Below, piece by piece: positions 7,057 to 56,292 of a DNA stretch of 64,000 bases; position 1 is the stretch's first letter, and each line of letters begins with the position of its first letter. Made by a program: the position numbers and the translations under genes. Where the stretch lies: the IMG/VR virus record IMGVR_UViG_3300020256_000017; one strand, written 5' to 3'. The DNA is from an uncultured virus (IMG/VR IMGVR_UViG_3300020256_000017). Taxonomy: Duplodnaviria > Heunggongvirae > Uroviricota > Caudoviricetes. The notes beneath the pieces were generated by a model. That model did no database searches and was not told where the DNA came from. It saw only the letters and a list, made by a program, of their open reading frames with translations.

Positions 7057-7776
7057 TTACATATTGCAGGCGCTTTTCATTTTATTGATGACGCGCAGTT
7101 CGTGAGGGAAATACTCAAGGGAGTACTTTTTCATAATGCCGTCAAACTCACCCAAATACTCACAGCGGTAAGGTTGATAGGGCGGCATCCAATCAGTCGG
7201 CCCTTTTGCCGATTTCTGCCTGTTTAATGATGCGCTAACAGGGAGAAGGTTGTCCATATCGTTGGCAAAAGCACGCTTTTGAGCGGCGCTCCATTTATCA
7301 CCACCGTGCGCATGCGCATAAGCAAGGGGCACAATGTGGTCAATATCAAGATCGTCGTCGTCATAATAGAATTTGCCGGAGTAGACGCCATACCACTTCC
7401 CCCGTGTCACATAACATCGTTTGATAATGTTATTGTAAAGAACGGGGGTCGTTGAGTGAGCAATCAAGACCTCAGCGCGCGTGTTCTGACAATCATTATC
7501 GTCATCCACCCAGTGTTCCCATGCGTCGCGATCATAGCGTTCGCCTTGCGGCAGGTTGTCTTTCGGTTTGGTGCCGGTGTAATTGCGCGGTGCGCGTCCA
7601 CCAGAATCAATACAGGCCTCCATGGTGGCATAGGCTGTGAAGTTCTTCGTTTTTTCATACCAGCTGCTGCTGGTGTCGTGGCAAATACCGCTACTGCTTT
7701 TCTTTACGACATCAACAGCGAAAGCCGATGTAGACAGAAAGACAGAAAACAGCAAGGTGACAAATGACGTACGCAT
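7057..7776 (-). CDS. Secreted HNH nuclease (DUF1524-like)
   Basis: Signal peptide MRTSFVTLLF..AFA; DIDHIVPL..FANDMDNLLPVSASLNRQK. Confidence 0.85.
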   Translation of the reverse strand: MRTSFVTLLFSVFLSTSAFAVDVVKKSSSGICHDTSSSWYEKTKNFTAYATMEACIDSGGRAPRNYTGTKPKDNLPQGERYDRDAWEHWVDDDNDCQNTRAEVLIAHSTTPVLYNNIIKRCYVTRGKWYGVYSGKFYYDDDDLDIDHIVPLAYAHAHGGDKWSAAQKRAFANDMDNLLPVSASLNRQKSAKGPTDWMPPYQPYRCEYLGEFDGIMKKYSLEYFPHELRVINKMKSACNM

Positions 7777-7882
7777 AGTGTGTCCTTGTTGGTGATTATA
7801 ACGTGGTGATGTTGGCAGCGTGTCATAACAGGCTGCCGTTTCGTGCAACGTACCTAAAAGTGAGAAGTGGCGAAAGTGCACC

Positions 7883-8368
7883 CTATATGGTGCATGCACC
7901 ACCCGCACATCCGCCCTCTGCGGAAGCTAATTCGGCAAGAATTTCTTCTTCAGATCGGCCTCGTGCAGCGGCACGCTCTGCCTCTGTCATCATTGACCCT
8001 GCGGTGCTGCGAGAAGCCGTCAAAAACGCCCCTTCGTTTATCCATTGCTCTACGATGATATCACGAATTTTTTCATCTGGCGTGATGCTGTGAAGTGACA
8101 GGGTTTCGATGATGGTCGCTTCAGCCGCACACACCACTGCTTGTTCATAAAACGACAATGGGCGACGAGTTTCTGTTAAGATGAAGTCAGGGTCAAGCTT
8201 GCCTACCTTCGTGATCACATCCTGCTTGCCCATATTGATGGTGGCTTGAAAGGCTGCGATTGCCGCAATACTGACAAGTGAAGCGATAGATACAGTATTT
8301 TTGTTCTGCTGAACAACGGTGTTCAAATCAGATACAACGGGCGCGAAAAGATTAAAGGTTTTGCTCAT
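7883..8368 (-). CDS. Hypothetical protein with C-terminal CAGGACTI
   Basis: Cassette-driven ORF; tail like that of 56293-56784. Confidence 0.75.
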   Translation of the reverse strand: MSKTFNLFAPVVSDLNTVVQQNKNTVSIASLVSIAAIAAFQATINMGKQDVITKVGKLDPDFILTETRRPLSFYEQAVVCAAEATIIETLSLHSITPDEKIRDIIVEQWINEGAFLTASRSTAGSMMTEAERAAARGRSEEEILAELASAEGGCAGGACTI

Positions 8369-17258: not shown

Positions 17259-19430
17259 ATGACTCACCGTTATTACAGTCCATCGCAACTAAAAAAAATG
17301 TTTAATAGCTGCTGCTCGCGAAAGATGCAGGTCGCACTGAGTGCACCTAATTTCCCCAAGTGTATCATGCGGGATGTATTAGAAAGCGAGACACCGAGAT
17401 TTGTGGCGGGGTACTACGCCAATGCTAAAAGTATTGAGAGTATGGCACAGATGCTCAATCACCCCGCATTTAGCGACAATGAGGTCAGCGAATTGCTGGC
17501 GCTTAATCCTGCGCTGGATGTGCTTTCACTGTACAGCGAGCGAGTGCCAGAGGCACTGTATAACCGTCTTCTCAATCGCGTTATTGATGGTGAGTATTCT
17601 GACGGAAATGTAAGTTTCATGGCGCAGAACATAGTCAATCATCGCGCATTCCCGTGGGAACGTGCTGATGCTATTATTGCAATGAATAATGCATCGCTGC
17701 TTGCTGAAATGGGGCAAGCTGCGTCATGTGATGCTGTATTGAGCGATATCGTTGCTGCTGTTCCACGCGTTGAAGATAAGACGCTCCATACCAACATATA
17801 CATCAAAGTGGCTGAAAACGCCGCATGTTCACGTTCGTTGTTTAATCGCCTGTTAGCGCTGGAAATAGAGCCTAATAGCACATGCCGGATACGCATTGCG
17901 TTGCTAGATAATCACGAACATACGATGGAGCAATTTCGCGAAGTTTTAGCGTATGTGCAAAACAATGCCAATACAGACTGTCGAGCAAGGTATGTATCGG
18001 ATGTGTACGACGCCGCATTTAAAAACGCTGACATGAAGCAATCCGATTTTATTGAGCTGGTTAAGTGCGACGCCTCTCAATACGGTATTGATGAAGGTTT
18101 TCACCGGCTTAATTTCTCAGATGCGCAAGCGGAAGCGATGCTGTTGGAATACCAGGGCAGCTGTGACGCGTTGTGCTACGCCATTCTTGACCGCGTAGAT
18201 ACATTGTCACCGGAGGTCGTTTCACAATTCATCGAGCGCGAGCCTGTTGACTCCTTATTAGTACGCAAGCTGCTAAGCAGTGGTAATGTCCCGTCGGGCA
18301 TCTTGGATATGCTGGCGTACGACCCCGATCACACTATCCAAATGCGTGTCGCGATGCACCCCAATGTCTTAGACAGCACGTTTAAGTGTCTCTACCGCGT
18401 ACGTGAGAGCATTATGAGTTCTAATAAGGATTATGATAAAACACTCTTCAATGAAAGCCCCGCGTTCGCGTTGCTTACGTCATTAAAGAACTACCTCATC
18501 TTGCATAATGATTACGGGTATGATCTGTTTGACTTCAAGAGTGTTAATTCGCCCAAGGCGATGACCAAAATGCTCATTGGTTCAAAACACCCTCAAGAGG
18601 TGCAGTTCTTGTTCGACAGTCAAGAGGCGGAGTCCTTGACCGCACTAAGCGCATTGCAGAGCGTGTTTACCAATTCACGTGGCAAACTCGACCGTCACGG
18701 ATACATTCAGTTTCTTGCGCAGATTAATAGTGCATTAGGCACAGGTAAACAGGCGCAGAAGCGCGCAGGGCTTGCCATTGATGCGCCGTCACTACGCACC
18801 TGTTTGGCTTTTTTGTCACACGATGAAATGGTAGCCGTTGTGATGGATAACGCCATTACCGAAGCGCGAGATGTGTTTCGTATGTTAGCAACGCTCATTG
18901 CACGAGATTGCCCTGATGAAAGCGCCAAACAGTGTGCGTTGGTGCGTAAATGGCTTGCGTCTAAGAAAGACTACGGTGAAGCATTTCATAGCTACTTAAG
19001 CAACAAGCAGCAACGTGACTTCTCAATCAGTACCGTCAATGCGCGTTTCTATCAGGCCGATGCTATTGCGCAGCTTGACACTATCACTGAAAGCCTCCCG
19101 TCACACGTCACACTAACACTGCCGGAGGACACAAAAGCCCTCCGTGCATTAGGTCGTGCTCAACATCACTGTGTAGGCACACGCTACTATGCTGACCGTT
19201 GTACGGATGGCTCAGCGGTGATTTTCGCCCTGTCTACAGGTAATAGGTCTGATGAAACGTTCACCTATCAATTTGAACGCAGTTCGGGACGATTGGCGCA
19301 AGCTAAAGGGTTTTCCAATAGTGACACACCGCCAGAGCTTAATAGCGTGGCGTACGAGGTGTTTAACGCCATTAAAGACGCGTGTGAGGCGGCACGTGAG
19401 CAAGCGGCCTTGCCACAAGAGAATGAATAG
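17259..19430 (+). CDS. Helical-repeat protein with C-terminal PcfJ-like domain
   Basis: LP...L..LG..QHHCVG..Y..RC..G...IF motif; repeats such as VAMHPN, VAENAAC. Confidence 0.75.
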   Translation: MTHRYYSPSQLKKMFNSCCSRKMQVALSAPNFPKCIMRDVLESETPRFVAGYYANAKSIESMAQMLNHPAFSDNEVSELLALNPALDVLSLYSERVPEALYNRLLNRVIDGEYSDGNVSFMAQNIVNHRAFPWERADAIIAMNNASLLAEMGQAASCDAVLSDIVAAVPRVEDKTLHTNIYIKVAENAACSRSLFNRLLALEIEPNSTCRIRIALLDNHEHTMEQFREVLAYVQNNANTDCRARYVSDVYDAAFKNADMKQSDFIELVKCDASQYGIDEGFHRLNFSDAQAEAMLLEYQGSCDALCYAILDRVDTLSPEVVSQFIEREPVDSLLVRKLLSSGNVPSGILDMLAYDPDHTIQMRVAMHPNVLDSTFKCLYRVRESIMSSNKDYDKTLFNESPAFALLTSLKNYLILHNDYGYDLFDFKSVNSPKAMTKMLIGSKHPQEVQFLFDSQEAESLTALSALQSVFTNSRGKLDRHGYIQFLAQINSALGTGKQAQKRAGLAIDAPSLRTCLAFLSHDEMVAVVMDNAITEARDVFRMLATLIARDCPDESAKQCALVRKWLASKKDYGEAFHSYLSNKQQRDFSISTVNARFYQADAIAQLDTITESLPSHVTLTLPEDTKALRALGRAQHHCVGTRYYADRCTDGSAVIFALSTGNRSDETFTYQFERSSGRLAQAKGFSNSDTPPELNSVAYEVFNAIKDACEAAREQAALPQENE

Positions 19431-22491: not shown

Positions 22492-22683
22492 TTAACCGTT
22501 GTCGGATACAGGGGCGCTTTGCACTAGTTCATTAAGATCAGCAATCAGCTGTGAAACGGCCTGAGACACCTCGTACGATTTCGGGTTAGACTCATCAAGT
22601 GCATTGATGATCTTGCGTTTAAGCTTGCCTGCTTCGCTCGCGACCTCACGAACTAATTGAATTTTCTTTTCTGACATTGTCAT
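22492..22683 (-). CDS. Small hypothetical protein
   Basis: Cassette plus GGAG. Confidence 0.65.
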   Translation of the reverse strand: MTMSEKKIQLVREVASEAGKLKRKIINALDESNPKSYEVSQAVSQLIADLNELVQSAPVSDNG

Positions 22684-22781
22684 TCTCCGTTGTTGTGTTG
22701 ACCAGGTCATCATCTCAAATCGTGTGTGTGTTGTCAACCTTTCTACGCATAATATTGAAAATAATCAAATTTAAAAGATGC

Positions 22782-22935
22782 AAAAAAGCCCGCCAGCATA
22801 ACCTGGTACGGGCGTTGTCGTCACAACAATGTGAGGGTCGGCGGCGAGAAGGCGTCAACACAACAGGCCGCCGACGTAAAGGATGCCCGGCGAGGGTGTT
22901 TTACGTCAACAAAACAACAGGTGCCGGGACTTTAA
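22782..22935 (-). ncRNA. Candidate small RNA antisense to the cassette leader
   Basis: Minus strand: CCCGGC[acctgttgttttgttgacgtaaaacaccctc]GCCGGG, GTCGGCGGC[ctgttgtgttgacgccttctc]GCCGCCGAC, small TCACA/TGTGA hairpin, then terminator GCCCGtaCCAG..CTGGCGGGC-T6. Confidence 0.75.
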
Positions 22936-22968
22936 ATTCAATACTGATGGTTGACGCATCAGGGTGCA

Positions 22969-23337
22969 TTATCCTTGGTTCATTAGAATGGTCGCCAAGG
23001 CGCTTTCGTATTCGGATAAGTAATCGTTCTCAGGGTTAGTGGCTAAGACGAGTGTAAGCGCAATGATAAGGCTGTCTCGCATTTGACCCACTAACTTATA
23101 ATTCATGTTATTTAGCGGCTGGTTCGCGATATGGTAGAGCAGGGAAGTTTTGGCGATGTACTCACTGCCGCAGACCCCGTTTTCAGCATTAAGGCGTTGC
23201 TCCATTTCGAGCACATCGTCAAGTTTCATCGCCAATATCGATGATTGCGCACCAAGTTTTTCTCGCAGCGCTGTCCACAGTTTCTCCACGTTAACACGGT
23301 TTGTTTTTTGTTTATTGTTCGTTGATGCGTGAGACAT
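22969..23337 (-). CDS. Hypothetical protein directly upstream of candidate sRNA
   Basis: AGGAG RBS. Confidence 0.65.
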   Translation of the reverse strand: MSHASTNNKQKTNRVNVEKLWTALREKLGAQSSILAMKLDDVLEMEQRLNAENGVCGSEYIAKTSLLYHIANQPLNNMNYKLVGQMRDSLIIALTLVLATNPENDYLSEYESALATILMNQG

Positions 23338-23409: not shown

Positions 23410-23901
23410 TTAAAGGGCCTCGTAGTTGATGACCAGTGCGCGCACTGCGTCATCATCCTCATCCCCCTCCTCAACTACGGCGTAGCCAGAGTCCGAGGAT
23501 GGGCTGCGGTTAAGATAAACCTCATTAACCTCATTAAAACCAATCGCCTGAATCGTATTTCCGCGGTCTCCGTAGTTCCACGCAGCGACAACAAAGTCGT
23601 CATCATCAAGTCCCGTTAGGTTATCGAGAAAGTCGCCTACCGTCATATGTTCAGAGACGTCGCCCGGTTCGAAGAAGTGAATAGGGGTGTCGCTGTCATC
23701 TTCATCGCCCTCCTCAACCACGGCATACCCAGAGTCTGAGTAGCTCGATGAGGTGATAAAGCCAGATGTAAGGTCGCCCAGTGGTACTGCCTGCATCGTT
23801 CTAGCGCGGTCACCGAACGTGCATGTTGCTACAACAATGTCATCGCGATCAAAGTGAGATAGCGCGTCGATGCATTCAGCTTTGGTTAGGGTTGAAATCA
23901 T
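23410..23901 (-). CDS. Acidic protein with internal duplication
   Basis: GDR..T.QA and SDSGYAVVEEGDEDD each occur twice. Confidence 0.75.
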   Translation of the reverse strand: MISTLTKAECIDALSHFDRDDIVVATCTFGDRARTMQAVPLGDLTSGFITSSSYSDSGYAVVEEGDEDDSDTPIHFFEPGDVSEHMTVGDFLDNLTGLDDDDFVVAAWNYGDRGNTIQAIGFNEVNEVYLNRSPSSDSGYAVVEEGDEDDDAVRALVINYEAL

Positions 23902-24023
23902 GGTGTTGCTCCGTTGTTGTGTTGACAGGGTTAGTGTCTCAAATGCTGTGTGTATTGTCAATGTTTTTTTAATAGAAAAGGCTGCTATTGAAAATAAACA
24001 AGAGCAGCCACTCAGTGATTGAC

Positions 24024-33353: not shown

Positions 33354-33434
33354 ACGTGTTTTTCCTTTGCTGTGTTGACGAAAAAGAGTATCTCACAATG
33401 TGAGGGCGTTGTCAACGAAAAGGTGCATTAGGTG

Positions 33435-40589: not shown

Positions 40590-40656
40590 ATTGTTCCCCT
40601 GTTGTGTTGACGTTTAAAATATACCAAAATCAAGTTCGCATTGCAACATAAAATTA

Positions 40657-42989: not shown

Positions 42990-43619
42990 TTATGCGCATT
43001 CTGCATAAACGTTAAGTAGCGACTTCACGTTCAGTTCGTCGAATACTAGACGGTCTTTTTCTTTGCTGTAGTAATAAATAATAGCGTTGAGCAACTCTTC
43101 ACTTGAAGGCTGATAACAACGCAGCCAGTAGTGTCTGCCTTCATGCTTTTCTTTAATAAAGCCAAGTAACGGCATAATGGTGCGGTGATCAACCAGTGTG
43201 CTATGATAGAATGGGCGCTCACCAGACGCTTCAAGCAAAATGCGTTTTACCTCGGTGAGGTGAATGCGCTCGCCAGGTGATGAAAAGTCGAACCAATTAA
43301 GATAATAACGAGACCAAAGGCGCACATTCTCTTTTCGCTTGGAGTCCGGCGCTTTGCCAACTTGGATATTATAAAGCCCTGCATCCTTTAATTCATTAAG
43401 GATATAAGTCTCGTACTCCGTCGCGGTTTTGTTGGTGAGGTTCTCAAAGACCTTAATCACAACAATATCACGACCTTGGAAGTGGTCCTCGTTGAGCTTA
43501 TAGCAACTACTCTTACCACTATTGCAATGCAAATATCGGTTACCTTTGCCTTTGCCGACATAACGCAACACATCATCGACATAGGCAGCGTAAACGTAGT
43601 AAGAGTGGTTACTGCTCAT
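42990..43619 (-). CDS. GIY-YIG-like nuclease domain protein
   Basis: YVY..YVGKG..R..H..E..YN. Confidence 0.65.
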   Translation of the reverse strand: MSSNHSYYVYAAYVDDVLRYVGKGKGNRYLHCNSGKSSCYKLNEDHFQGRDIVVIKVFENLTNKTATEYETYILNELKDAGLYNIQVGKAPDSKRKENVRLWSRYYLNWFDFSSPGERIHLTEVKRILLEASGERPFYHSTLVDHRTIMPLLGFIKEKHEGRHYWLRCYQPSSEELLNAIIYYYSKEKDRLVFDELNVKSLLNVYAECA

Positions 43620-48916: not shown

Positions 48917-49633
48917 TTATGGTTTTGAGCGATAGAAAGGAACGCGATTGTTCATGATGCGAAGTTCTGCAATGTTCGCTTCTTTTATCGCTGACTGGCA
49001 GCCACCACAGGCATAGAGGTGACCAGAGAGGTACAGGATGCTGCCTTTTGCTTTATTTCCCGCCGCACGAAGCGCATTAACCTCTGCGTGCCCGTCCTGC
49101 TGGCACACGCTTTGACAAAGTTCGTATCCTTCGCCGGATTTCATGCCCTGCACCTCACGAGGGCATACCTTTTGAGGGTTGCGGCAAAGGTTTGTGCCGG
49201 TAAAAGATTCGCCATCTGGGGTTACCACGGTGGCATAGACGTTTTGTTTAACGCAAGGGCCACCAGCGCTATGAAGCTTAGTTATCCCAATACCATGTTC
49301 AAAGTAAGTGACGAAAAAGCCGGTTGCGTCGTGAAAGAAGTCCGCCACATCTTTGCGATAGAGTGTTAAGTGATTCCTTTTTACATTAACAGTCGTTTTT
49401 ATTGTATCAATAATGCCATCAGGCACCATGTCGGCACGCCTAAGAAAGATGTGGTTTTCTTGGTTGTTCTTTTGAAGGCTGTTGGCGATAACATATGTCA
49501 TGCCCAAATCATGAAGCCCTGAGTGCATGATGAGATTGTCGTCAACAAAAGAAATTCCTTTACCGTCAATAATGCAAGAGGCATCATGGTAGCTTACCTG
49601 TAACTCTGGCATTGGGTGGTGAGAGCATGTCAT
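48917..49633 (-). CDS. dCMP/cytidine deaminase-like protein with N-terminal extension
   Basis: HAEVNAL and CGGC zinc motif; C..Q.V N-terminal deaminase motif. Confidence 0.8.
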   Translation of the reverse strand: MTCSHHPMPELQVSYHDASCIIDGKGISFVDDNLIMHSGLHDLGMTYVIANSLQKNNQENHIFLRRADMVPDGIIDTIKTTVNVKRNHLTLYRKDVADFFHDATGFFVTYFEHGIGITKLHSAGGPCVKQNVYATVVTPDGESFTGTNLCRNPQKVCPREVQGMKSGEGYELCQSVCQQDGHAEVNALRAAGNKAKGSILYLSGHLYACGGCQSAIKEANIAELRIMNNRVPFYRSKP

Positions 49634-50904: not shown

Positions 50905-51120
50905 TTATCTTTCAATAAGCAGCACTATTCGACTGTCATTCTGCGAGAAGCATAAGTCTTCGTGCGAGTGAACTGTTCGCCGGATGTTGGCGATGCGTGC
51001 GCCATTCGATGGAGAGCCTTGTTGCGCGTCAGGGTAAAGCGCGTTCATTATTCCCCAGTCGGAATCGCTTCCATTAGGCTGCGTTCGCAAATAAGTCAAT
51101 ATTCGGTCGACAAGTTTCAT
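50905..51120 (-). CDS. Small possible winged-helix protein abutting the IS end
   Basis: ATGA overlap with iscB stop. Confidence 0.6.
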   Translation of the reverse strand: MKLVDRILTYLRTQPNGSDSDWGIMNALYPDAQQGSPSNGARIANIRRTVHSHEDLCFSQNDSRIVLLIER

Positions 51121-52502
51121 CGTGTCAAGACAAGGAAACCCGGTACTTTAGTGCCGGGAGGAATTGCCGCTCCATAGTTAAAGTTATAACCATCACTGCG
51201 TTGGATTATCCGACAATGTTTGTGGGATATTCCCTGCACAGCGCCCGATTCGCTTTGGATATTAAAGTAGCCGTTTTTGCGAACAGCAACTCTTCCAATA
51301 TGCAAACCTTGTTTCTTTCCAGTTGGGACATTGGCTGTAACCAAGTCTCCTGTTCTGAATCCATAAACGACAGAGGATGTTTTGGCTGACGTTCTGGGAA
51401 AACCATACTTGTCAACCCGACACATCTGTCGCGATCCATGTCCTTTTGCCGAAGCAACAAGGATGTGATGACATTCCAGTACTACCGCGCTTCCGTTTTG
51501 ACCGATGCAGGCGGCATCAATCCAGTGGTCTTTGGTGTGACCTTGCTCTGAACGGTTCTTTTTGGTCAGGCCGCCTGACCAAAATTGCGTGTTTGGAATA
51601 ATGTATTTGATGCTGTTGCCGACAGCATAACGTGTGGCGTTGACCGCAGCGGCGTCTCTGAGTGAAGGGCGGTATCCGTCCATGATGCGCTGCATGTTTC
51701 TGGCGCGTGTCAGGTTCAGTTTGTCACCACGCTGTTTGCATAGCGACATCCATGCGTTGGGGTGTAAGCTGCCTTTGTCCACGTTACATTCCCGGCAACT
51801 GATGACATGATTGGCCAAGCGGTTGGAGCCACCCAGCGCTTTAGGAGTGACATGCTCTTTTTCCAACACCAGGTCCTTTGTCAAGCCATGACAATAAGCG
51901 CAGATATGCTGGTGGCGATAAAGTAAGTATTCGCGCAGCTCCCAGCCAAACAGTGAGCCCTGTTGATACTCCTTTCCGGCAATGTCTGGGTTTTCGATAA
52001 GTTGGGTATCAAAACGTACTGTTTCGACATTGGCCGACGTGATAGGCACGAACCTGCTCAGGCGTTTTGTCCACGTTTCTACGTTGTAAACCCGTGACAT
52101 CAGCGAAGGCGGTAACCATCCCGCTGGACGGGTTCGATTCAGAAAACGCGGTTTACGATAGCGTGTTTTGCGATGACGACGCGAACGCCTGATAGTCCGA
52201 CGGCTTTCCAAAGCGTCACGTATTTGTTGTCCACGATGGACAATGTGCTGACCGTAGACGGCAACCTGATCTCGTTGAAATAGCGCTACCAGTGCAATCC
52301 CGGTGGTCTTGCTGCCCGGATCGACATTTAACGCCACAGGCTGCGTTTCGCCGCCTTGTCGTTCTTTCAGTACAATAGTGAAAGGGTACCGACGAAACAC
52401 CGCTGCTTTTCCATCACGCAGGAGCTGACGCGCCCTTGCAGGACGGCAAGGCATTAAAGGTTGTTTCTGATTGTCGAGTACCAAGACTCTCACGTTACCC
52501 AA
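51117..52502 (-). CDS. iscB: RNA-guided endonuclease IscB (PLMP, split RuvC, bridge helix, HNH)
   Basis: PLMPC motif; VDPGSKTTG; RRTIRRSRRHRK; VETVRFD; CAYC..EHVTP..GGSN..CRECN; DHWIDAAC. Confidence 0.95.
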   Translation of the reverse strand: MGNVRVLVLDNQKQPLMPCRPARARQLLRDGKAAVFRRYPFTIVLKERQGGETQPVALNVDPGSKTTGIALVALFQRDQVAVYGQHIVHRGQQIRDALESRRTIRRSRRHRKTRYRKPRFLNRTRPAGWLPPSLMSRVYNVETWTKRLSRFVPITSANVETVRFDTQLIENPDIAGKEYQQGSLFGWELREYLLYRHQHICAYCHGLTKDLVLEKEHVTPKALGGSNRLANHVISCRECNVDKGSLHPNAWMSLCKQRGDKLNLTRARNMQRIMDGYRPSLRDAAAVNATRYAVGNSIKYIIPNTQFWSGGLTKKNRSEQGHTKDHWIDAACIGQNGSAVVLECHHILVASAKGHGSRQMCRVDKYGFPRTSAKTSSVVYGFRTGDLVTANVPTGKKQGLHIGRVAVRKNGYFNIQSESGAVQGISHKHCRIIQRSDGYNFNYGAAIPPGTKVPGFLVLTR

Positions 52503-52764
52503 TCTCCAAAATTAATGTCTGTTACCAGAACGTTCTCCGCATAAAGCGGGTAATGTTTGCCTCGACCTTGTTATTCGGAGGTTTGATGAAAACGACACTG
52601 GCTTAACCCATTACACCTGTTTAATCGTTTCCCGCAGGGCGTGGAACTGGCAAGTCATCCCACGGTGCCTATACATTCTCTGATAACGGCTCCATTGTTT
52701 ACCCAATGGGGTCTGGTCAACATAGTGCTTTACAAGCCTGCCCCTTTAGGGGTGGGTAGTTGAC
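51121..52764 (-). mobile_element. Non-autonomous IS200/IS605-family element carrying iscB and omega RNA
   Basis: Terminal hairpins with CTAAAG cores (CCCACCCCTAAAGGGGCAGG; CCCGGCACTAAAGTACCGGG) flank iscB; no tnpA. Confidence 0.85.
52505..52764 (-). ncRNA. omega RNA / HEARO-type scaffold
   Basis: GTCAACTACCC..CTAAAG..GCTTG..GTTGACCAG..CGTT..ATAGGCAC..GGATG..CCAGT..TTAAACAG..GTCGAGG..TTACC directly upstream of iscB. Confidence 0.85.
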
Positions 52765-53336: not shown

Positions 53337-54206
53337 TTAATCATCCATATTTGAGAAAGTTGAATGCCAGATGATGTCTTCTCGACTTTGTTCAAGTAGT
53401 AGTGAAGACAACATGTTTTGAGGCACCAATCCCGCATCAAGGATCGTTGACATAAAGAAAATTAATGGTAGAACTTTGAGCAAAGAGGTTACAAAATGGC
53501 CAAATTTTCGTTCGGATTCCGGATGGAACAAAGCGATCAGCAGTATCGGTGTGAAAAAGGTCACTGCCATAATAGTTAAGCTAGATGGACCGGTTTCATC
53601 AATGATTGAAACTAGGGAGTAGACCGGTGCAAGTAAAAATGCAACGCTAAGCGTGAAAGAGATATTAAAAAAACGCGCAGCGGTGCGGGGTGACGCTAAC
53701 CAAAATACCTGCGTAGAAACCCCCAATATAAGTGGGAAAACCGCATAGAACCATGAGGGAGAGCCGTAGTTTAAAATAATGGCCAATGCAGCAATAAGCG
53801 TAACACCTAGTTTCTTAAATACGGGTAAATTGACTTTTGTAGACGTCGCATGGCTGACAATGTCAGGCAGTGTTATCTCAATAGGAGGAACAATATTGAA
53901 AACGTGCGAGCCATAAGAGATGGAGGTGACATCATCAATGTTATATCGACTCACTTTGTTTTGCAAAAGTGTTTGTGAACTGTTGTCATGGAGCGTTACC
54001 GTGACACCTGGACTCAACGTATCCACACAAAGCTTACCCTTTAGTGATTTGACGCGAAAGGCTCTGTAGGGGAGTGTTGATGATTTTATGTTGAGCGAGG
54101 TGCTATAGTCAGAGCCTACCGATGCATAATGTTCATCAAGTGCAATGAAATGGTTGTCTTGAGGCTCACCTGACGTCGCGTATTGTAATCCATAAGTGCG
54201 CATCAT
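53337..54206 (-). CDS. Membrane protein, possible degenerate FHA N-terminus, coupled to protease
   Basis: Several C-terminal TM helices; 1-bp overlap with protease gene. Confidence 0.6.
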   Translation of the reverse strand: MMRTYGLQYATSGEPQDNHFIALDEHYASVGSDYSTSLNIKSSTLPYRAFRVKSLKGKLCVDTLSPGVTVTLHDNSSQTLLQNKVSRYNIDDVTSISYGSHVFNIVPPIEITLPDIVSHATSTKVNLPVFKKLGVTLIAALAIILNYGSPSWFYAVFPLILGVSTQVFWLASPRTAARFFNISFTLSVAFLLAPVYSLVSIIDETGPSSLTIMAVTFFTPILLIALFHPESERKFGHFVTSLLKVLPLIFFMSTILDAGLVPQNMLSSLLLEQSREDIIWHSTFSNMDD

Positions 54207-55462
54207 TAAAGCTCCTCTATAATATCGGCAAGCAATGTAGAGCTTGCCATGGGTGATAGCCCTTGAAATGTAATGTCATTGGCGATCACATTATTGCTAT
54301 CAATGGCGTAAGAGATGGTGACGCGATGTGTCCAATAAGACGGTGATGTGTTGCTGCGTATTGCGCAGTTTCTGATCTTTGCCCGACGATCATTGGTTAA
54401 TGTGGTAACGATAAATTCACAGGATGAACTGCTATAGAGAGAATCGTCATCGTCCTGAACGAGAGGGGATAATTGGGTCAATAGAAATAGAGGATCTAAC
54501 CCCATGATGCGCTGTATAAGGTTTGGGTCGCTGTCTTTTAGGTGGTAAGAAAATACCGAAAAGCCCTCTAGTGTGTGTTTTCCGCCAAGCCCTAAGTCCT
54601 CTAAGGTGTAACAATGTTTTATATTGATAGAGACAGAACCATCCTCGACTTTATCGTTGTTGCATTTCACGAACGGCGAGTTTACCTCTAACGCATTTGA
54701 TTGTGCGCTGAATTTCCCTTTCAGCATATCGGTGATAAGTGTTGACCACGCATGAAGCTGTTCTAATGCAACAGAAAGACTGTCTGTGTTGGGTGGGTTG
54801 CTGTTAACGTGTTCCACTAGCGTTCTAAGGTGTTTTGCGTTGACTGCGTAACCCATGCCATTACCGGAAGAGGATACATTGACACCTACCAGTATCTCGT
54901 TGCTGTCGATAACAGGACCTCCGCTCATGCCACTGTTAAGTGAACCAGTGAAATTAAGGAGTTCTCTTTTAGATGCCTCTCGCACACCGTTGTATACGCC
55001 GGGCACAATCATAAAACCCGAGCTGTTGGGGTTGCCCATGCTGTATATGGTAGCGCCCTGTTGAACGTGACTTTCACCTAGTGTAAAAGGCGTAATATCG
55101 TCTGTGTTAGCCTCTACGGTAAAGATAGCGAGGTCATTGAACATGTCAACGGTATGAAGTGAAACCGGATAGATGGATTTGTCGGTGCCTCGTGTAACGA
55201 TAATATCATAGTCTTCCTGTGCAAGGAAATAATCATCAATGACATGGTAGTTGGTAACAAGCAGATTGTTTTTTATGAGAAAGCCTGTGCCGTATGAGGT
55301 GATGCCGCTTGCGCCTTTTAGTGATGTCGATATTTGGAACATTGCGCTGTTGTATTTGGCGACAAGTCTTTCTTCTGTAGTCGGTGAAGCGAGTGCGATA
55401 TTGGTGACTGTAACAAAAGAGAAAGCAAGAGTGGGAACAATTAAGCGTAATGCGCTTAGCAT
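54206..55462 (-). CDS. Exported trypsin-like serine protease
   Basis: GTGF, TNYHV, DLAI, GMSGGP triad motifs; signal peptide. Confidence 0.9.
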   Translation of the reverse strand: MLSALRLIVPTLAFSFVTVTNIALASPTTEERLVAKYNSAMFQISTSLKGASGITSYGTGFLIKNNLLVTNYHVIDDYFLAQEDYDIIVTRGTDKSIYPVSLHTVDMFNDLAIFTVEANTDDITPFTLGESHVQQGATIYSMGNPNSSGFMIVPGVYNGVREASKRELLNFTGSLNSGMSGGPVIDSNEILVGVNVSSSGNGMGYAVNAKHLRTLVEHVNSNPPNTDSLSVALEQLHAWSTLITDMLKGKFSAQSNALEVNSPFVKCNNDKVEDGSVSINIKHCYTLEDLGLGGKHTLEGFSVFSYHLKDSDPNLIQRIMGLDPLFLLTQLSPLVQDDDDSLYSSSSCEFIVTTLTNDRRAKIRNCAIRSNTSPSYWTHRVTISYAIDSNNVIANDITFQGLSPMASSTLLADIIEEL

Positions 55463-55581
55463 GGCGGTGCCTCTTTTTGTTTTTTGTATTGTTGTTTGGC
55501 GTAGCGGGGAGGGTGAGGGGCAGGTAGTGGGTGGGAACCCACCCCTCAAAAAAACCTTATAAATCAATAACTTAATCTTCG

Positions 55582-56190
55582 CTAAAAAGGAATATCGTCA
55601 TCAAAGTCAAAATCTGGTTCTGCCATAGGTGGGTTCTTACCAGCGTTCTGACCGCCTTGATTTTGATTACCGCCACCTTGGTTGCCACCGCCATTATTGC
55701 CGCCTTGGTTCTGGTTGTAACCACCTTGATTACCGCCGCCTTGGTTTTGGTTGTTGCCTTGGTTGTAACCGCCACCTTGATTTTGGTTATTGCCTTGGTT
55801 GTAACCGCCACCTTGATTTTGGTTGTTGCCTTGGTTTCCACCGCCATTGTTATTGCGACCGCCTAGCATTTGCATCTGATCGACAATGATTTCAGTAGTG
55901 TACCTGTCTTGGCCCTGCTGGTCTTGCCATTTGCGCGTTTGAAGTTTACCTTCAACGTAAATTTGTGAACCTTTTTTAAGGTACTCTCCAGCAATCTCAG
56001 CCAGTCGGCGATACATGGTAAGTCGGTGCCATTCAGTGCGTTCCTGAACTTGACCCTGCTGATCTTTCCAGCTTTCGCTTGTTGCTAGACTTAAGTTGGC
56101 AACGGCATTGCCGTTAGGCATGTAGCGCACCTCAGGATCGTTCCCAAGATTACCTACAAGGATGACTTTGTTTACGCCCTTAGTGGCCAT
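55582..56190 (-). CDS. ssb: Single-stranded DNA-binding protein
   Basis: [34 protein letters not shown] linker; DFDDDIPF tail; start corrected to lie after cassette. Confidence 0.98.
55650..55850 (-). repeat. 36-bp tandem coding repeat in SSB linker
   Basis: ([12 protein letters not shown])x~3 plus degenerate units. Confidence 0.85.
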
Positions 56191-56292
56191 AAATGTTTCC
56201 TTTGTTATCTGTTGTGTTGGCAGAATTAGTATCTCAAAAACAGTGTATGTTGTCAAGAAAACTTTGTTTTATTAGTGTGAAAGTTGGCCGTG

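Follow-up and report, generated by a model that had tools for sequence, protein, structure and literature searches.

The module and its operon

The analysed stretch of DNA, hereafter the window, belongs to a giant mobile element of marine origin that is uncultured. It is 64,000 nt long with a G+C content of 47%, and a greedy ORF call places 106 of its 129 ORFs on the - strand. Known families are almost absent among these ORFs, with PHROG matches for 13 of 103. The feature under study is an intergenic segment whose - strand (22962-22782, as used for folding) is here called the module. The features of the locus, with the hairpins and linker as predicted by folding, are:

23913-23961, - strand: operon promoter and leader box, with the -35 starting at 23961 and the box GTCAACACAACAAC at 23926-23913
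23410-23901, - strand: gene A, about 163 aa, first gene of the operon
22969-23337, - strand: gene B (P0008), 122 aa, last gene ahead of the module
22944-22962, - strand: hairpin 0, CUGAUG-CGUCAAC-CAUCAG
22929-22943, - strand: AU-rich single-stranded linker, UAUUGAAUUUAAAGU
22886-22928, - strand: hairpin 1, stem CCCGGC/GCCGGG (22928-22923 and 22891-22886)
22837-22875, - strand: hairpin 2, 9-bp stem GUCGGCGGC/GCCGCCGAC (22875-22867 and 22845-22837)
22814-22827, - strand: small hairpin GUUGU-GACG-ACAAC
22782-22813, - strand: intrinsic terminator, bulged stem GCCCG..CCAG/CUGG.CGGGC (22813-22788) followed by U6 (22787-22782)
22689-22737, - strand: next promoter cassette past the terminator, -35 at 22737-22732, -10 at 22714-22709, box at 22702-22689

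Judged from its sequence context, the module forms the 3' end of a two-gene operon driven by one of the window's promoter cassettes, the one at 23961. Neither a consensus scan nor the cassette position weight matrix (PWM) finds a promoter of the module's own, and the ORFs that span it (120 aa on the + strand, 48 aa on the - strand) fall into no family, with a best E value of 0.11. The cassette at 22737, beyond the terminator, drives a gene of 61-63 aa (22492-22683).

The product of gene A is very acidic, with two tandem repeats ending in SDSGYAVVEEGDEDD, and has no Pfam match at E<=1; a DNA mimic or an anti-restriction protein would be a guess. Gene B has no Pfam or PHROG match and no relatives in IMG/VR, and only five proteins among 1.84 billion resemble it at E<=0.001. 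Distant homologues are P0011 (46% identity, on a 19-kb contig) and P0012. An AlphaFold model of the gene B product is all-alpha with a pLDDT of 70, and a Foldseek comparison of this model with the PDB returned no match at E<=0.001. Given the lack of Pfam, PHROG and PDB matches, there is no sign that gene B encodes an RNA chaperone or a repressor.

Promoter cassettes share a leader box

The window holds about 40 sigma-70 promoter cassettes, nearly all on the - strand, with the layout TTGACA-17-GATACT-N6-GTCAACACAAC(AGG)-SD-ATG. A pattern search of the window yields 35 strict cassettes, whose consensus reads TTGACA, Ac.CtCaCag.tTTTGA, GAtACT, N6, GTCAACACAACa, then the SD and ATG; the PWM, built from the promoter part, finds 41 cassette-like promoters on the - strand and two on the + strand. 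The box GTCAACACAAC carries ~2 bits per position, roughly the invariance of the -35. The seventh base past the -10 hexamer, the G of GTCAAC, is therefore the expected +1, so that the box would form the very start of the mRNA.

Allowing up to two mismatches, GTCAACACAACAGG occurs 35 times in the window against 0.47 expected, and none of 100 shuffles reaches 35. Eight copies are exact:

2900, 9975, 36373, 38365, 40598, 47100 and 53250, - strand: seven exact box copies
22854-22867, + strand: one exact box copy

The base preceding the box is C at 40598 and 47100 and T at 2900, 9975, 36373, 38365 and 53250. Two further regularities mark the cassettes. All carry a palindrome in the promoter spacer, TCTCA-N5-TGAGA, which overlaps the extended -10 (for example in 38413-38365) and might serve a regulon-wide protein repressor as its operator. 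In addition, the sequences of the -35 region (GACAACAC) and the +1 box (GTCAACAC) nearly repeat one another. One cassette, with its -35 at 1837 (1837-1768, - strand), has an unusually long structured leader (GTCAACACACATCGCCCCAGCGATAAC...) ahead of its ATG, against 20-25 nt in the other cassettes.

Fold and strand of the module

The module folds with a minimum free energy (MFE) of -67.6 kcal/mol (z -2.88), and one of 200 shuffled sequences folds as well. A sequence-only reading of the segment had described two GC-clamped hairpins followed by a T6 terminator on the - strand; its sequence and coordinates held on recheck, and folding reproduces the arrangement. The intrinsic terminator with its 3' U tail appears in both the MFE and the consensus folds, and a simple terminator consensus scan missed it, flagging hairpin 0 only. 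The terminator is one-way, as no T run follows the stems on the + strand, and this property together with the gene orientation supports the - strand as the transcribed one.

Assembled contigs from RNA runs bear on the locus, covering part or all of the surrounding 1-kb stretch in six runs, and inform on presence, without ends, strand or level. Four of these runs were compared with the locus. In X15 and X20 long contigs (17.7 and 8.6 kb) span the whole 1-kb stretch and may be DNA carry-over or long transcripts. The contigs of X18 and X19 cover both flanking genes and leave the module uncovered, stopping at 22639/22682 and 23029/23011, a pattern that counts neither for nor against a module transcript.

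The loops are complementary to the leader box

Both hairpins hold the leader box in reverse orientation (anti-boxes). In hairpin 2 the anti-box, CCUGUUGUGUUGACG (22867-22853), lies in a 21-nt loop and complements the consensus leader exactly. The loop of hairpin 1 holds a variant anti-box, CCUGUUGUUUUGUUGACG (22921-22904), and the corresponding box copy, GTCAACAAAACAACAGG at 22905-22921, carries a 3-base insertion. Elsewhere in the 64 kb no reverse-oriented box was found other than those leading + strand genes, so 22853-22867 and 22904-22921 are the only ones of their kind, and both lie in loops of perfect GC stems ahead of a terminator that works on the - strand only. The loops are large, with a mean unpaired probability of 0.57-0.59; anti-box 1 is half buried in an inner stem, UGUUUUG/UAAAACA, which leaves the apical loop UUGACG.

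In both anti-boxes the similarity to the cassettes runs from the C preceding the predicted +1 to the AGG by the SD, and neither is surrounded by any similarity to the -10 or -35. Such exact limits, free of promoter remnants, are what RNA-level complementarity predicts, and an inverted cassette copy would not show them. A recount agrees with the pairing originally reported, from the predicted +1 onwards: 15 of 15 positions at 40598 and 47100, and 14 bp plus one G.U at 2900, 9975, 36373, 38365 and 53250. The complement to some 40 leaders also stands (35 strict cassettes, 41+2 by PWM), with at least 11 contiguous Watson-Crick pairs to loop 2 in 29 of the 35 strict leaders. By length of the longest run, these leaders divide into one of 15 pairs, five of 14, two of 13, fifteen of 12, six of 11, one of 10, three of 9, one of 7 and one of 6.

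Since prediction of whole-RNA duplexes gave messy long-range pairings, run counts and opening energies were used instead. The 14-bp loop-leader duplex is worth -22.7 kcal/mol, opening costs 7.0 kcal/mol for the loop and a mean of 1.4 kcal/mol for the leaders, and the net energy after these costs is ~-14 kcal/mol. By computation, the module thus presents an accessible seed to several mRNAs at or near the ribosome-binding site (RBS). Winding of the leader into a closed loop should not be topologically blocked, because the target is a free mRNA 5' end.

In hairpin 0 the loop, CGUCAAC, repeats the start of the leader box. It is also complementary to GUUGACG, as noticed in the sequence-only reading, and this motif is present in both anti-boxes. 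A likeness of the pyrimidine runs at the loop ends to an anti-SD had also been proposed. The runs are real, but they face bases 5' of the mRNA +1, and since that side lies beyond the end of the mRNA they cannot pair next to the anti-box.

Local conservation in relatives

Among metagenome loci, gene B has close relatives only, and four loci carry it: L002, which is the 486-kb contig of the window itself; L004, within a contig of 230 kb; L005, a 4.9-kb contig; and L003, which is cut. The module is kept in every gene B locus that reaches that far (three related metagenome contigs). It differs at 4 of 182 nt in L004, where the flanks differ by 10.5% (P 1.6e-5), and at 8 of 182 nt in L005, with 7.9% in the flanks (P 0.04). 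Over the 146 nt from hairpin 1 through the terminator, L004 differs at three sites and L005 at five. Neither of the two has a change in hairpin 2, and hairpin 0 is identical in L003, L004 and L005.

The linker is the most variable part of the module, with half of the eight variable sites, and none of the eight falls in an outer stem or an anti-box. Within the inner stem of hairpin 1, an A>G change in L004 and L005 keeps the pair (U-A to U.G). The relatives are very close, with box and anti-box unchanged, and none of the 56 predicted pairs shows a compensatory change. Overall identity between L002 and L004 is 96.3%, in a mosaic pattern that leaves 56% of 94-nt intervals free of differences. Because of this mosaic, conservation taken genome-wide is uninformative and recombination could account for the conserved island; what stands out is the module's local conservation, within a patch that has diverged by ~10%.

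Relation to known regulatory systems

The c4 antisense RNA of phages P1/P7 (immI), a small structured RNA, comes from an operon system under its own control, with loops complementary to sequence upstream of an RBS. The module would likewise yield a small structured RNA from the operon system it controls, with loops complementary to sequence upstream of an RBS, but c4 controls one downstream operon (icd-ant), whereas the module's complement is common to ~40 dispersed transcripts. Rfam includes a C4 model, and no Rfam family, C4 included, reaches threshold at the module locus; membership of the P1/P7 c4 type by homology was accordingly set aside.

A second parallel is the class of 3'UTR-derived sRNAs (CpxQ and SroC type), which lie between a stop codon and their own terminator, are promoterless and have an AU-rich single strand upstream. 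The module shares their position, the absence of a promoter and the AU-rich upstream stretch; it differs in having its seeds in loops.

Control of a mobile-element gene class through common features is known for proteins, namely T4 RegA, RegB and plasmid global repressors. A literature search found no RNA that controls the regulon of a phage or plasmid by way of a common 5' tag. In a 2025 review of phage sRNAs, 'leader' and 'early genes' each occur zero times, and a full-text search for the box returned, among the matches listed, only unrelated ones. T4 RegA represses ~30 mRNAs, according to the passage cited from PMC3014915. Like T4 RegA/RegB, the arrangement described here would amount to class-wide control of early-type mRNAs at the translation start, but RegA and RegB are proteins, and here the candidate is an RNA acting through a repeated leader.

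The cassettes themselves resemble the PeSL units of T4-type phages, which the cited sections of PMC2839356 and PMC4122927 describe as repeated sigma-70 early promoter units, often preceded by stem-loops, before many small ORFan genes. The cassettes share with them the promoter repeats at gene junctions (35 strict, 43 by PWM) and the indels between close relatives. L002 (8417-8715) and L004 (7212-8711) differ by ~1.2 kb of gene content at a junction adjoining cassettes, as would be expected from PeSL-style gene shuffling. A conserved +1 box or a matching antisense module is not among the PeSL features reported in the cited sections (PMC2839356, PMC4122927).

Another mechanistic parallel is GcvB. 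In its core, AACACAACA, the leader box has the GcvB target and ACA-enhancer motif (AACACAACAT, CACAACAT), and the loops have the GcvB seed as theirs, UGUUGUGUU. As described in the cited part of PMC5900567, the G/U-rich seed of GcvB in Enterobacteria and Pasteurella, AUGUUGUGUU, pairs with AACACAACAT/CACAACAT targets, meeting AACACAACA just upstream of the SD in many mRNAs. In the section cited from PMC3879156, ACA motifs are translational enhancers that GcvB silences, so that the target doubles as an enhancer; this would both explain the conservation of the leader and supply a tested mechanism. In sequence and structure the module shows no homology to RF00022: covariance-model searches gave no GcvB match in 6 kb with a cut-off of E<=1, nor in 261 nt with one of E<=10, and thus do not place it in the GcvB family. 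Its seeds lie in GC-clamped loops, whereas those of GcvB lie in a linker; it is encoded on a mobile element and would target the cassette leaders of that element, at the extreme 5' end of the mRNAs.

A candidate anti-leader RNA

From the observed sequence, fold, complementarity with its exact boundaries, terminator strandedness and local conservation, we infer a possible course of transcription, processing, pairing in vivo and translational effect of the module RNA. The reading put forward, tentatively and at somewhat less than an even chance, is that the module is a trans-acting, possibly also cis-acting, anti-leader RNA.

The - strand 22962-22782 would be made as the 3' UTR of the operon transcribed from the cassette promoter at 23961 and possibly cut free within the AU-rich linker, which may be an RNase E processing site. 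The product would be a structured RNA of ~95-185 nt ending at the U6 terminator, whose two GC-clamped loops would display G/U-rich sequence with the core UGUUGUGUU. These loops would pair with the C/A-rich 5' end that the cassette mRNAs share (GUCAACACAAC, as far as the GG in the SD), masking the ACA-type translational enhancer and the edge of the RBS, so that translation would fall and decay might rise. Hairpin 0 would mimic the first bases of the target and could mask a loop until displaced.

The position at the operon end fits feedback better than a standing immunity RNA, because the module lacks its own promoter and the operon is itself cassette-driven and box-bearing. The sequence-only reading had favoured an immunity-type RNA; the predicted dependence of the module on a cassette promoter instead suggests a self-limiting circuit. 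Since the module RNA would be cassette-made and its own operon carries the box, the circuit would be one of delayed negative feedback, a burst on entering a new cell followed by damping, and not a separately expressed immunity repressor.

The same reading had one RNA silencing the entire gene set. The core of that proposal gains from the - strand, from an anti-box that is displayed and unique and whose complementarity begins at the predicted +1, from local conservation and from the GcvB precedent; the silencing of the whole set is doubtful on stoichiometric grounds, with one two-seed module facing 41+2 promoters of similar strength in the window. Titration would need a much more stable or recycled RNA, multiple copies, or further modules in the remaining ~420 kb of the 486-kb contig. 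The most ambitious version is rather unlikely, namely that the element tags some 40 or more mRNAs with an ACA-enhancer leader and that one operon-end RNA with a GcvB seed governs them all, in a RegA-like sequence of burst and damping.

Because the tag is the GcvB target motif and the loops carry the GcvB seed, the device might also connect to the amino-acid sRNA network of the host, with the leaders serving as a massive sponge for GcvB and the module RNA imitating GcvB on host transporter mRNAs. If the proposed reading is true, one small RNA controls a whole mobile-element gene class through a shared 5' tag, and the coincidence of tag and seed with GcvB would offer a direct, testable link between element expression and host amino-acid physiology.

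Alternative explanations

The anti-boxes might act in cis only, pairing within their own transcript, which we regard as unlikely. They could pair with the operon's own 5' box (23926-23913), joining the 5' and 3' ends so as to tune how genes A and B are translated or how fast their mRNA decays; or, in read-through transcripts, they could pair with the next gene's box and SD (22702-22689), a T4-like occlusion of the start region. Intramolecular pairing would remove the stoichiometry problem, and a single module per 64 kb is as expected of a gene-specific device. The operon's own leader box gives 12 contiguous pairs and the downstream box lies ~150-215 nt past the anti-boxes, but loop 2 fits the family consensus (14-15 nt, in seven other leaders) better than these neighbouring leaders (12 nt each). 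Start-region occlusion has precedent in T4 genes e, soc, 49 and I-TevI, in the passage cited from PMC3014915. The layout needed for occlusion, with anti-boxes at 22853-22921, promoter at 22737 and box at 22702-22689, has the terminator separating anti-boxes and downstream box, and a 12-nt match against 14-15 nt elsewhere. Insulation against read-through would, moreover, be needed at every cassette junction and is present at one of ~40, and two anti-boxes with a target-mimic loop are more than occlusion needs.

Somewhat less likely still is that the anti-boxes are functionless products of cassette recombination and the hairpins only a cluster of terminator and stabiliser elements. The cassettes are recombination-prone repeats, and close relatives differ by an indel adjoining cassettes, as in PeSL (cited sections of PMC2839356 and PMC4122927). 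The two hairpins are tandem paralogues, which would reduce their origin to one event, and CCCTCACATTGT, just past hairpin 2, recurs in the spacer of the cassette at 33379. A relic would not, however, be expected to end exactly at +1 and AGG without promoter remnants, to have both copies framed by perfect GC stems, to persist as an island inside a ~10% diverged patch, or to be accompanied by a hairpin 0 whose loop is complementary.

Control at the level of DNA or protein is improbable. Here a DNA-binding regulator would use GTCAACACAAC at +1 as its operator, or a leader-binding protein would recognise it in the RNA, and the inverted copies would be extra operators or decoys near the promoter at 22737. 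With ~2 bits per position, the box equals the -35 in invariance, which is beyond promoter needs; its sequence GTCAACAC nearly repeats that of the -35 region, GACAACAC, and the spacer palindrome TCTCA-N5-TGAGA suggests a protein operator. Yet double-stranded DNA binding would leave the flanking GC inverted repeats without a role, no gene for a regulator was found, and gene B matches no DNA- or RNA-binding fold (no PDB match at E<=0.001, no Pfam match). An ACA-rich box, furthermore, already has a known role at the RNA level, according to the cited section of PMC3879156.

It is very improbable that the + strand is the active one, as a sponge or decoy whose hairpins display two leader boxes to soak up a host GcvB-like sRNA (compare AgvB) or a leader-binding factor: the box core is the GcvB target consensus (PMC5900567, passage cited) and AgvB and SroC are known GcvB sponges (cited parts of PMC12197685, PMC4104026 and PMC4474525), but on motif evidence the + strand decoy offered in the sequence-only reading has no promoter in the consensus scan or by the cassette PWM and no T run after its stems, and the neighbouring genes are all on the - strand.

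The element and its host

A single-stranded DNA-binding protein (SSB) gene at 55582-56256 (- strand) encodes an OB domain (residues 19-131) 96.5% identical to those of the Alteromonas mediterranea megaplasmids pAMCP48-600 and pAMCP49-600, and the 1-kb stretch around the module is present in many marine runs from 16 studies. On these two grounds, the host is probably Alteromonas or a neighbour. Despite the 96.5% identical SSB core, pAMCP48-600 holds no copy of the leader box, and no GcvB was found in it; a literature search found no report of an Alteromonas with GcvB. No DNA match to the window was found in phage or plasmid collections, and no instance of the cassette pattern in IMG/VR. The only GTDB match, L001, was rejected as a chance match within a coding region.

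The 723-aa PcfJ-like protein encoded at 17259-19430 (+ strand) has a distant likeness to proteins of Vibrio plasmids of ~306-320 kb, and together with the SSB it hints at host and plasmid kinship. The element may be either a plasmid or a phage.

Among the very few window ORFs that have a family are a GmrSD_C/HNH-like nuclease gene (7057-7908), a gene for a cytidine/dCMP deaminase-like protein (48917-49633), a trypsin-like protease gene (54206-55567) and a weak GIY-YIG match (42990-43619; E 6e-4, 20.2 bits against a Pfam cut-off of 27), all on the - strand. An IscB-type gene of 461 aa with RRXRR and HNH domains lies at 51117-52502 (- strand), and directly upstream of it, at 52550-52764 (- strand), is a HEARO RNA (RF02033, 136 bits), HEARO being the omega-RNA of IscB; the pair looks like an OMEGA system within the element.
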